Source: Candidatus Zixiibacteriota bacterium
GTDB lineage: Bacteria; Zixibacteria; MSB-5A5; UBA10806
Direction of reading: 5' to 3'
DNA length: 64,000 bases
NCBI GenBank assembly: GCA_020348065.1
Contig: CP070742.1
Location: forward strand, 1,765,721-1,829,720
Shown here: positions 48,434-51,094 of the stretch, in pieces
How positions within the stretch are numbered: position 1 is the first letter of the stretch
How the letters are laid out: the number at the start of each line of letters is the position of its first letter
Program-made: the position numbers and the translations under genes
Notes under the pieces: generated by a model
The model's database searches: none
What the model saw: the letters and a program-made list of their open reading frames with translations, nothing else
What the model was told of the DNA's origin: nothing

Positions 48434-49186
48434 ATGAATCCCGAGGAATTAAAATCTTCCGTAACAGCGGCGGGAAAACTGCCGGAGCACGTTGCCATAA
48501 TTATGGATGGCAATGGCCGATGGGCCAGAAAGCGCGGCCTGTTGCGCACTGCGGGCCATCGCGCCGGAGTGAAAACCGTCAAGAAAATAGTGCGAATCGC
48601 GGGAGATATCGGGCTCAAGTATCTCACCCTGTTTACTTTTTCCACCGAAAACTGGAAACGTCCCAAGGACGAGGTCTCTGCCATAATGAGGCTTCTGGAG
48701 CAGACTACCAAAAAGGAGCTTTCCGAACTTCTCGAAAATAATGTCAGGCTGATCGCCACGGGCAATATAGAAAACCTTCCGCCCAAAAAACGGGAGGTTT
48801 TGCTTGATGCTATAGAGCGCACCAGGAACAATACCGGATTGGTTTTAAATCTGGCCTTGAGCTACTCCGGCAGGGCCGAAATACTGCAGGCCATAAAAAA
48901 TATCACCACAGATTTATCCTCGAAAAAAATTTCCCCCGATGATATCAATGACGAGTTGTTTTCGTCCTACCTGCAAACCAACGGCCTGCCCGATCCCGAT
49001 CTTTTGATAAGAACATCGGGCGAAATGCGCATCTCTAATTTCCTGCTGTGGCAGACGGCCTACACCGAGCTTTATGTCACCGACGTTCTCTGGCCCGATT
49101 TCAGCGAGGATGATTTTCTAAAAGCCATAGCGGATTATCAACGTCGCGACAGACGGTTCGGAATGGTTTCGCCCTCCAAAAAATGA
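48434..49186 (+). CDS. uppS: Undecaprenyl pyrophosphate synthase
   Basis: HVAIIMDGNGRWA, plus the LIRTSGE region (FLLWQ). Confidence 0.9.
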   Translation: MNPEELKSSVTAAGKLPEHVAIIMDGNGRWARKRGLLRTAGHRAGVKTVKKIVRIAGDIGLKYLTLFTFSTENWKRPKDEVSAIMRLLEQTTKKELSELLENNVRLIATGNIENLPPKKREVLLDAIERTRNNTGLVLNLALSYSGRAEILQAIKNITTDLSSKKISPDDINDELFSSYLQTNGLPDPDLLIRTSGEMRISNFLLWQTAYTELYVTDVLWPDFSEDDFLKAIADYQRRDRRFGMVSPSKK

Positions 49187-49989
49187 GCAAGAATCTCGCT
49201 CAAAGACTTATCGTCGCCGCCATTGGAATCCCAGTATTGCTGTTTATAATTTATAGGGGAGGGTATTATCTCTATATTTTTTCTATGCTGGTCGCGGTAC
49301 TGGGCAGCTGGGAACTTGCCGCCATGTTTCTTTCGAAAAATATAGAGATAGGGAAACGGCTGGCCACGCTGTTGTCCATAACGGTGGTCTCGGTTTTTCA
49401 ATTTTCGACTTTCGGCGAAACCGGGCTGCTGATCATGTTTTTGCTGTTCTTTCTGGCGGCGTCGTTGAAGATGATCGAAACCGGAGTGGTCAATTACACC
49501 TCGAGACTGGCCACCGCTCTTCTGGCGGCGGTTTATCCCGGATTCTTCATCTCGTTCTCTATCCTGATTCACCGGAACTTCCCGTCGGGATGGCTCATAC
49601 TGCTTTTTATTTTTGTCAACATATGGCTGGCCGATACCTTCGCCTATGGATTCGGAAAATGGCTGGGATCCAAAAAACTCGCCCCCACCATCTCTCCCAA
49701 CAAAACCTGGGTCGGGTTTTTCGCCGCCTTCCCCGGAGGTTTCCTCACGGTCGCGGCGGTCTATTTTATCTTTAACAGCGAATGGAATACCCTCGCCTGG
49801 CTGGCGGCCAGCGTAACCGCCACCTTTTTCGGCCAGATAGGCGACCTGGTAGAATCGGCCGTCAAAAGAGATTGCGACGTTAAGGATTCGTCCAATCTCA
49901 TTCCCGGGCATGGCGGCGTGCTGGATCGTTTCGATTCGCTCCTTTTTGCCCTGCCGTCAGTCTATTTTGTCTTTAAAATCGCTTCCTGA
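49183..49989 (+). CDS. cdsA: Phosphatidate cytidylyltransferase
   Basis: Polytopic membrane protein with the CTP-transferase C-terminal signature SAVKRDCDVKDSSNLIPGHGGVLDRFDS. Confidence 0.85.
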   Translation: MSKNLAQRLIVAAIGIPVLLFIIYRGGYYLYIFSMLVAVLGSWELAAMFLSKNIEIGKRLATLLSITVVSVFQFSTFGETGLLIMFLLFFLAASLKMIETGVVNYTSRLATALLAAVYPGFFISFSILIHRNFPSGWLILLFIFVNIWLADTFAYGFGKWLGSKKLAPTISPNKTWVGFFAAFPGGFLTVAAVYFIFNSEWNTLAWLAASVTATFFGQIGDLVESAVKRDCDVKDSSNLIPGHGGVLDRFDSLLFALPSVYFVFKIAS

Positions 49990-50101
49990 ATATTTTTCGG
50001 TAGGGCTGATTGTAAATCAAGAAATCGTCATCGCGAGGACCCCGGCGCGGCCGGATAAACCGACCGCCTACGAAATAGCCTGATGTCCGGTGCTGGTGCC
50101 C

Positions 50102-50280
50102 CACCCAACGGGTGGGTCGTTCCCTTCCCTCCGTGTCGCAATTCATTGCGACCGCACCCTCTCAGTCATATTTCACTGGTTCCCAAGCGCCGCCTGGGAA
50201 CCATAACCGTTTGTTGTGTTTCGGGAACTATGATTCCCGAAACCGTCCCGCCGTAGATCAGGTCTCCCCAAGACCTGACA
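50102..50280 (+). other. Cluster of five distinct, perfectly paired inverted repeats (candidate structured RNA, terminator array or IS200/605-type hairpin element) in a 600-nt non-coding gap
   Basis: Hairpin 1: CCCACCC/GGGTGGG at 50102-50118. Hairpin 2: GTCGCAAT/ATTGCGAC at 50137-50154. Hairpin 3: GGTTCCCA/TGGGAACC at 50180-50204. Hairpin 4: GTTTCGGGAA/TTCCCGAAAC at 50220-50245. Hairpin 5: TCAGGTCT/AGACCTGA at 50260-50280. The only ORF here (50112-50312) is low-complexity. Confidence 0.5.
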
Positions 50281-50593
50281 TCGATTCCGTTCCCTTTAAA
50301 TTCTTCTCCTGAAAATAACTTTATAATCATATATACAAAATCAAGTGCGGTCTATTTGTTTGCGCGGTTCAAATCCCCGCATAATATGGAGCCCGCAATA
50401 TATCCGGAAACAAAAACGCGCCATCGGGATCTTCGTTTAAAATGCCTCAATATCGACCCGTTATTTCTGCCAACGGTACCCTGTTTTTTCTCCGTTGCCT
50501 TTTGAAACCCGGGTAGAATTGCTGAAAATTGTTTGACCTTATACGTCCCGATCTGGTTTAAAGTATTTTCCGCCAGGCCGATAAATCTAATGT

Positions 50594-51094
50594 ATGAGAA
50601 AATTTATTTTATGTATTCTGCCTATTTTAGTAGTGTTCGCCGCTTGTTCCGGGCCGGTGAAAGACGCGAAATACGATCTCCCTGCCCGGCCGCTTCATGG
50701 TAAGGACGCTAAAAAACTCCTTACCGGGGCGTCGAAACATATCGGCGAACCATACCAATACGGCGGGGTTTCCTCAAAAGGATGGGATTGCTCCGGATTT
50801 GTCCATGGCATGTTTAAAAGATATCTGGGCGTAAACCTGCCCAGGGAAACCGGCGGATTGTATTCGGCGAGTGTATGTGTAAGAGCCAAAAACTCCCGTC
50901 CCGGCGATCTCGTATTTTTCAGGATAGAATCGGGCAAACCGTCTCACGTGGGGATTTACGCCGGCAATAACAGGTTTATCCACTCTTCAACCTCCGGCGG
51001 CGTAATGGTCTCCAGACTCAGCGAAGACTATTACAGGCAGCGTCTTATCGGCTATCGAAGAATCCGCCACGGATTTCTGGCGAACAGTCGCTGA
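50594..51094 (+). CDS. NlpC/P60 family cell-wall peptidase lipoprotein
   Basis: Lipoprotein signal (LVVFAACSG). Catalytic Cys in GWDCSGFV and the conserved His in HVGIYAGN. Confidence 0.85.
   Translation: MRKFILCILPILVVFAACSGPVKDAKYDLPARPLHGKDAKKLLTGASKHIGEPYQYGGVSSKGWDCSGFVHGMFKRYLGVNLPRETGGLYSASVCVRAKNSRPGDLVFFRIESGKPSHVGIYAGNNRFIHSSTSGGVMVSRLSEDYYRQRLIGYRRIRHGFLANSR

Follow-up and report, generated by a model that had tools for sequence, protein, structure and literature searches.

What occupies the 604 nt between the stop codon of cdsA and the start of nlpC (49990-50593) in a Candidatus Zixiibacteriota genome? The window, that is, the whole 64-kb stretch of DNA that was analyzed (positions 1-64000), is placed in this phylum by its cdsA and NlpC homologs, and its NlpC protein is 100% identical to UCE67931.1, which is encoded on a 3,744,838-bp Zixiibacteriota MAG contig. 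The gap has no credible ORF and is the largest ORF-free stretch of the window. Six short ORFs overlap it without entering cdsA or nlpC, each of at most 66 aa, and a Pfam scan of four of the six gave no match. An earlier description made from the letters alone, here termed the sequence-only reading, had correctly seen both an empty gap of about 600 nt and five distinct perfect hairpins with stems of 7-10 bp within 180 nt, but set REP repeats aside. The best explanation for ~300 nt on the cdsA side of the gap (about 50027-50293) is an intergenic mosaic, BIME- or NIME-like, of REP-type palindromes (probability about 0.8). The feature is thus one of ordinary REP-type repeats in a little-studied phylum, not a new structured RNA. 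The elements of the gap and its flanking genes are as follows; L numbers denote fetched loci.

49183..49989, + strand: cdsA (CDP-diglyceride synthase; Pfam CTP_transf_1, E = 1.2e-60), the end of the frr-uppS-cdsA block.
50027..50040, no strand assigned: start of a short motif, GTCATCGCGAGGAC (gtcatcg[c/t]gag...), recurring in other Zixibacterial intergenic mosaics; low confidence.
50041..50082, + strand: module M0, cccGGCGCGGCCGGATAAACCGACCGCCTACGAAATAGCCTG, which includes a 5-bp palindrome, CCGGC-gcg-GCCGG.
50042-50054: a sixth small palindrome, CCGGCGCGGCCGG.
50095..50116, + strand: H1 REP unit, 22 nt, GGTGCCCCACCCAACGGGTGGG, a singlet with GGTG tag, 7-bp stem and loop AAC.
50100-50116: hairpin 1 (H1), 7-bp stem, loop of 3.
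50132..50160, no strand assigned: H2 module, cgtGTCGCAATtcATTGCGACcgcaccct, 29/29 identical in L023 2078-2106.
50135-50152: hairpin 2 (H2), 8-bp stem, loop of 2.
50177..50203, no strand assigned: hairpin 3 (H3), TGGTTCCCAAGCGcCGCCTGGGAACCA, 9-bp perfect stem, or 13 bp with one mismatch.
50215..50244, no strand assigned: H4 module, tgtGTTTCGGGAActatgaTTCCCGAAACc, 30/30 identical in L023 2204-2233.
50218-50243: hairpin 4 (H4), 10-bp stem, loop of 6.
50253..50282, + strand: H5, a GTAG-tagged palindrome, GTAGaTCAGGTCTccccaAGACCTGAcatc, with GTAG one base before the stem.
50258-50278: hairpin 5 (H5), 8-bp stem, loop of 5.
50294..50316, + strand: relic cdsA 3' end including the stop codon, 23 nt, CTTTAAATTCTTCTCCTGAAAAT, directly after the array.
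50317..50593, + strand: AT-rich sequence upstream of nlpC, without similarity to relatives except in the last ~45 nt before the ATG.
50594..51094, + strand: nlpC, the next gene downstream, encoding an NlpC/P60 (C40) peptidase (Pfam NLPC_P60, E = 3.4e-30).

The array starts ~40 nt past the cdsA stop codon, and the clustering of its hairpins is not due to chance. The whole window contains 40 perfect hairpins (stem of at least 7, loop 3-9), from which ~0.1 would be expected per 180 nt, so that five amount to ~50 times the background; by arithmetic from the same window-wide count, the probability of at least five hairpins in 180 nt is ~7e-8 per position. All five are perfect inverted repeats lying where they were first noticed, only with positions about 2 nt lower than those then given. 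On either strand, the fold of the 221-nt hairpin block is far more stable than those of shuffled sequences (z = -4.8 and -5.7). Folded singly as DNA, H1-H5 have energies of -6.9 to -9.9 kcal/mol, and four of the five beat all 200 shuffles. The spacers between them, originally called pyrimidine-rich, are indeed C-rich on the + strand (GC skew -0.15 to -0.33). Each of H1-H5 is a short palindrome (about 20-40 bp) that forms a stem-loop, as REPs do, and the five share no similarity, direct or inverted, beyond a 9-nt GGGAAC[C/T]AT match. Within the window there is one copy of each unit (M0, H1-H5), which suggests a low copy number in this genome, and there is no second copy of the gap. A CRISPR array, already set aside by the sequence-only reading, is rejected on the lack of any direct-repeat family longer than 12 nt in the region.

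Beyond the window, H1 is a dispersed repeat. The identical 22-mer occurs 15 times in the 558 kb of fetched loci, in unrelated intergenic contexts, and a search allowing up to 4 mismatches gives 77 matches compared to 0-1 for shuffled patterns. At the orthologous locus there are two copies in L023, both in the same orientation, and two to three in L020. When metagenomes were scanned with the H1 core, 51 loci matched, whose host contigs are not all assigned to Zixibacteria. The extended GG...G unit is found in about 17 of these 51 (counted from the flanks), compared to a chance expectation of ~0.8; the intergenic contexts of these copies are unrelated to one another and lie mostly after genes, and about six come from one sample. 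The GGTG tag is conserved, and it differs from the variant tags cited from PMC3733652 (GTGG and others). Inverted H1 doublets, similar to REPINs, occur in several relatives (L052, L070, L078 and L079). As the search pattern itself had selected most copies, evidence from paired changes is drawn only from copies not chosen in this way; these secondary copies keep the stem through paired changes (CCCCACCT..AGGTGGGG and CCCCGTCC..GGGCGGG).

H1 is also found beside genes for a RAYT. In L074, two H1 copies are followed by a 201-aa RAYT gene, and an inverted, degenerate H1 overlaps the 3' end of that gene. Its product scores 107.1 bits on NCBIfam NF047646, 'REP-associated tyrosine transposase' (cutoff 80), and also matches Pfam Y1_Tnp. 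Four further RAYTs (P0122, P0123, P0124 and P0125) score 108-118 bits on NF047646 (same cutoff of 80), while on the IS200 model the RAYT proteins reach only 28-32 bits, below the cutoff of 55. In L074, L077, L078 and L079, H1 lies upstream of the RAYT gene and an inverted H1 at or after its 3' end; with NF047646 scores of 107-116 bits for their RAYTs, these relatives show the flanking of a RAYT gene by its inverted cognate repeat that characterizes REPs. The gene order is mostly dciA-gyrB-[H1]-RAYT-[inverted H1], the RAYT gene being downstream of gyrB in three of the four relatives. When the window and the other fetched loci (L077-L079 aside) were scanned for RAYT genes, L074 alone had one. 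The RAYT ortholog of the window's own genome is UCE65922.1 (P0124), which shares 75% identity with the L074 protein, reaches 117.9 bits on NF047646, and is encoded on a contig of 3,744,838 bp, the length of the contig that carries the window's NlpC. Taken together, the repeat and gene arrangements identify H1 as the predicted cognate repeat of the Zixibacterial RAYT, the flanks of UCE65922.1 being assumed from those of its relatives. REP repeats had been excluded on the ground that the hairpins differ from one another. This argument does not hold, both because H1 is identical to a 22-nt repeat that flanks RAYT genes in relatives and because the units are different palindromic families that co-occur in mosaics. 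The sequence-only reading had also proposed that multiple copies would reclassify the region as a mobile repeat; since H1 has multiple copies, that rule applies to H1.

Three observations concern the surroundings of these genes and of H1 itself. The position of the RAYT gene is constant in L074, L077 and L078 (dciA-gyrB-RAYT), with proteins 74-86% identical, a pattern consistent with reports that RAYTs are inherited vertically and in single copy. A ~70-nt segment (ctacaaaataggccctgacgacgagggcaacgaactggaactggag...) is present on both sides of the RAYT gene in L079 (3250-3320 and 4040-4106) and recurs in another contig, at L078 4650-4720. At L020 2024-2187, a ~146-nt insert interrupts the loop of an H1 copy. 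The insert has CTTGTTGATAAA / TTTTTCAACAAG as terminal inverted repeats, comes with a direct duplication of 9 bp, CCCAACGGG, and resembles a MITE inserted into a REP.

The other units have fewer copies, and several of them recur outside this locus. The leading motif at 50027..50040 has a 12-nt match at L003 4080-4091, and related motifs are found at L003 4840-4857 and 5042-5060 and at L067 8110-8215. M0, another dispersed repeat, has copies in three contexts: the window, the region upstream of the BNR gene in bin119 (L025 2185-2203 and 2223-2246), and the region downstream of the RAYT gene in L079, where the copy is 26/27 identical to window 50045-50071. H5 has a copy on the opposite strand in bin119 (L003 4168-4197, 28/30 identical), which adjoins two other GTAG-tagged hairpins, one of them read as CTAC on the opposite strand. 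This copy is not assigned to the cdsA locus, because the cdsA break in bin119 is a 100-N scaffold gap. In the Zixibacteria-type loci, a GTAG or CTAC tag accompanies 11 of 88 hairpins with stems of at least 8, compared to ~3.4 expected.

H2, H3 and H4 lack a GTAG or CGTC tag. H2 has no copy beyond the orthologous locus in 558 kb of fetched loci, and H3 has none in any fetched locus over the same 558 kb. H4 has a diverged copy (23/26) inside another intergenic mosaic, at L067 8263-8288, and its 16-nt core, GGGAACTATGATTCCC, occurs just 3' of gyrB in L078. Scans of viral contigs for H2, H3, H4 and H5 gave either nothing or chance matches with unrelated flanks. Three H2 matches were rejected on their unrelated flanks, and a single H3 match on its unrelated loop and flanks. 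Most likely, H2, H3 and H4 are additional palindromes of the REP kind, either orphans or units of low copy number. Hairpins of yet another form, (T)GTC-ATTCCnnn-loop-nnnGGAAT-CCA, occur in relatives at L002 5329, L003 4942 and 4980, L025 2072 and L032 1996, and in L056 at 1885, 1973 and 5033. They fit the published description of the CGTC/dRS3 REP superfamily, and none is present in the window's array.

Comparison of the same locus in relatives shows how the units behave. The window's cdsA product is 94% identical in amino acids to that of L001 and 68% to that of L002. In L020 (91% nucleotide identity in cdsA), cdsA is followed by a 633-nt hairpin-rich spacer, a 528-aa BNR/Por_Secre_tail gene and then NlpC; in L023 (81% nucleotide identity), by a 332-nt spacer, the same BNR gene and NlpC. 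In L002, a UbiA gene stands in the position of the BNR gene, only 44 nt after cdsA. The starting assumption that dxr and rseP normally follow here is therefore misplaced, since neither follows cdsA in L020, L023 or L002, and the relatives examined have a BNR/T9SS-tail or UbiA gene and then NlpC/P60, with 29-62 nt between the BNR or UbiA gene and nlpC. Most relatives carry the BNR-repeat gene (~529 aa, with a T9SS C-terminal sorting domain) just upstream of nlpC, and the window does not.

The order of units in the window is M0, H1, H2, H3, H4, H5, while in L023 it is H2, a TGTC/ATTCCC-type unit, H1, H4, H1. Thus H2, which follows H1 in the window, precedes it in L023, and H4 lies there between the two H1 copies. 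In L020, the closer relative, H2 and H4 are absent and the H1 copies are accompanied by other hairpins, and L025 (bin119) has M0 and an H1 variant upstream of the BNR gene. The units are therefore separate modules, not one co-linear element, and the site that they occupy 3' of cdsA is hypervariable. Between the window and L023, H1, H2 and H4 are 100% identical over 25-30 nt, whereas the flanking cdsA and nlpC genes are 81-83% identical in nucleotides. For H2 and H4, this may reflect horizontal exchange or selection on a local function.

The array also sits between two versions of the cdsA terminus, since the relic at 50294-50316 is 21/23 identical to the cdsA end of L023 and 18/23 to the window's own. 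Its alignment score of 36, compared to a shuffle mean of 15.4 (sd 2.3), was reached by 0 of 300 shuffles. The relic fits growth or recombination of the cluster that carried flanking DNA along, and it agrees with the remark in PMC3733652 that large REP clusters include flanking DNA. After the relic comes the AT-rich sequence, whose 49-aa ORF has no Pfam match; its last ~45 nt align with relatives (TTTAAAGTAT...CCGATAA...TATG) and presumably contain the nlpC promoter and RBS.

How might such a mosaic arise? It has been established that RAYT / TnpA-REP acts on a folded single-stranded hairpin with its tag (PMC3333891, PMC3479197, PMC3116915), the biochemistry of binding and cleavage of single-stranded REP having been done for E. 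coli TnpA-REP (PMC3333891, PMC3479197). By analogy with this knowledge, the Zixibacterial RAYT would be a Y1/HUH single-strand DNA endonuclease that recognizes the folded hairpin and its unpaired 5' tag, and would thereby recognize H1; the tags read would be GGTG for H1 and GTAG for H5. By cutting and rejoining single-stranded DNA, the enzyme would seed copies in intergenic DNA, and clusters would then grow and shuffle by local duplication and recombination, dragging flanking DNA along, which would explain the relic cdsA 3' end after the array. A survey of tagged REPs describes RAYT-plus-REP 'REPtrons', different families that coexist in one genome, and clusters that vary in composition and include flanking DNA (PMC3733652). 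Finally, because the array lies within the cdsA 3' untranslated region, its transcribed hairpins probably impede 3'-to-5' exonucleases and read-through into nlpC. Such a role in protecting the 3' end of cdsA mRNA or in termination would probably be a by-product, not the work of a dedicated RNA gene.

The possibility that the gap encodes a single multi-stem structured ncRNA, or a 5' leader or riboswitch controlling nlpC, had been raised at the outset and is highly improbable. Genes of the NlpC/P60 class are sometimes riboswitch-controlled, the gap lies upstream of such a gene, and its fold is significantly stable on both strands. However, covariance models found no Rfam family: there was no match in the whole 64-kb window at the gathering threshold (ydaO, RNase P, tmRNA, SRP, 6S and others, and no tRNA or ribosomal-protein leader near rpsB-tsf), nor any for the gap at E of 1 or below, ydaO included, and a permissive search (E of 10 or below) of 49900-50700 gave best E values of 1.2-7, for unrelated eukaryotic or viral families. 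Moreover, unit order and number differ between relatives, which does not fit a single co-linear structured RNA, nor does the proposed ydaO-type control of nlpC find support. Since a BNR or UbiA gene directly precedes nlpC in relatives, at the spacing of 29-62 nt given above, the array does not belong to a leader conserved ahead of nlpC, and about 300 nt of unrelated AT-rich DNA separate it from nlpC in the window. The RNA and leader readings are therefore largely refuted. A stack of locally selected terminators or insulators, which would end the rpsB-to-cdsA transcript and shield nlpC with hairpins that are not mobile, is unlikely. The array is directly 3' of cdsA on the transcribed strand, its hairpins are stable, H2 and H4 are perfectly conserved in L023, and a scan of 50000-50593 for the intrinsic terminator consensus found none elsewhere in the gap, the only terminator-like site being inside cdsA. 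In addition, H4-like copies (L067, L078) contain stem positions that are non-complementary as DNA, three of which, in L078, would be G-U pairs as RNA. Yet the hairpins are followed by C-rich tails and none by a T-run, unlike intrinsic terminators, although they may act on transcripts in this way as a side effect. In L020, the closest relative, cdsA is followed by a set of units that differs from the window's; H1 and M0 are found elsewhere too, in unrelated contexts and beside a transposase gene; in relatives, H1 is directly upstream of the presumed BNR promoter region; and L002 has no more than 44 nt from cdsA to the next gene.

It is very unlikely that the region is, instead, the scar of a deletion or recombination in which the BNR/T9SS gene was lost and the hairpins were left as its former upstream region, fused to other DNA. 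In relatives, the 529-aa BNR gene separates the hairpin region from nlpC; the window lacks this gene, and the relic cdsA 3' end follows the array. On the other side, no homolog of the BNR gene exists anywhere in the 64-kb window, a search of the gap for BNR or UbiA pseudogene remnants gave noise-level matches only, at very permissive settings, and the conserved promoter segment of the BNR gene has left no remnant in the window. A scar would also account for the position of the array and not for the nature of its hairpins, and it is compatible with a REP mosaic and hence no true alternative to it. Of the three readings offered earlier, the IS200/IS605-derived hairpin element (PATE- or MITE-like) is the most nearly correct, RAYTs being Y1/HUH enzymes that belong to this transposase superfamily; the MITE part of that suggestion fails, since the array is not framed by terminal inverted repeats and does not recur as a whole. 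Nor can the cdsA-end duplication serve as a MITE target duplication, being diverged (18/23) and, at 23 nt, far longer than is typical. Two further identities were considered and dropped, a CsrA sponge (from GGA-rich minus-strand spacers) and an anti-SD function (from CCUCC in plus-strand spacers), as spacers and unit order are not conserved in relatives.

Among known systems, the closest to this REP mosaic is the REP/REPIN and RAYT 'REPtron' of E. coli, Pseudomonas and Stenotrophomonas (PMC2817692, PMC3116915, PMC3333891, PMC3733652). The features in common are a G+C-rich palindrome of only 20-30 nt, tagged at its unpaired 5' side in H1 and H5, a location in intergenic DNA mostly just downstream of genes, and, for H1 in relatives, many dispersed copies and a single RAYT gene that has inverted copies of its own repeat around it and a conserved chromosomal position. 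The differences are a tag of GGTG instead of GTAG, a copy density that appears low in this genome (one copy in 64 kb), an H1 that is a singlet in the window where a REPIN is a doublet, and a host in an uncultivated FCB-group phylum. As in an enterobacterial BIME, several REP-type hairpins are joined by short linkers in one intergenic region. In a BIME, however, one REP family supplies the few variants, which alternate strictly in orientation and are joined by defined linker motifs, while the units here have unrelated stems and show no alternation of orientation, so that the array is not a BIME in the strict sense. The Neisseria NIME with dRS3 (CGTC-1 family, PMC3733652) is similar in that members of several small repeat families are intermixed and reshuffled from one locus or strain to another, and relatives of the window carry the TGTC-ATTCCnnn-loop-nnnGGAAT-CCA units that fit the CGTC/dRS3 description. 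It differs in that the window's array has no dRS3-type unit and that H1 is RAYT-linked, whereas the Neisseria repeats have no linked RAYT. Finally, the subterminal hairpins of IS200/IS605 and the PATEs are likewise DNA hairpins read in single-stranded form by a Y1/HUH transposase of the same superfamily. Unlike these elements, the array has no tnpA or tnpB gene and no left-end and right-end pair bounding it, and its linked enzyme scores above the RAYT cutoff (107-118 bits) and below the IS200 cutoff (28-32 bits, cutoff 55).

There is a small chance that these mosaics are more than passive, being either heterogeneous hairpin cassettes kept by a RAYT or a selected modular device at 3' ends. In the former case, one vertically inherited RAYT might maintain and shuffle units with unrelated stems (H1-H5, M0 and the GTAG-tagged hairpins), and the locus would then be a hotspot where palindromes arise or pass between lineages. 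In the latter, the five-hairpin block might serve as 3'-end protection or insulation for the essential rpsB-to-cdsA operon.

Reading the region as a REP mosaic has several consequences. A candidate 'new structured RNA' is cleared away for a definite reason and not for want of a match, and a REP-RAYT pair (H1, GGTGCCCCACCCAACGGGTGGG) is documented in Candidatus Zixiibacteriota, a phylum known only from metagenomes. Hairpin-rich intergenic mosaics are shuffled between close relatives in these genomes and coincide with assembly breaks and over-extended gene calls. H1 provides a sequence tag to mask when annotators screen these MAGs for non-coding RNAs.

Several minor observations were made on contigs of relatives. 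Arrays of three to five different hairpins also occur at L003 4860-5105, L003 4100-4195, L056 5145-5262 and L067 8110-8290; their presence in other intergenic regions of related contigs indicates that hairpin mosaics are a general trait of these genomes. Just 3' of cdsA, a 121-nt unit is present once in L020 (1663-1783) and in at least 2 tandem copies in L001 (3838-4085), where the contig ends. The unit holds a long hairpin (CTGATGTGTCAGGATG...CATCCTGACAC), and related units lie beside H1 doublets in L070 and L052. At L023 2174-2353, the JGI call of the BNR gene begins 60 codons early and crosses the hairpin array, the true start being 2354 by alignment with two orthologs. In the bin119 'chromosome' (CP070813.1), the 100-N scaffold gap lies in mid-cdsA, at L003 3304-3403. 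A GTAG-tagged hairpin borders this gap and recurs 740 nt further on, so these repeats evidently break or mis-join assemblies.
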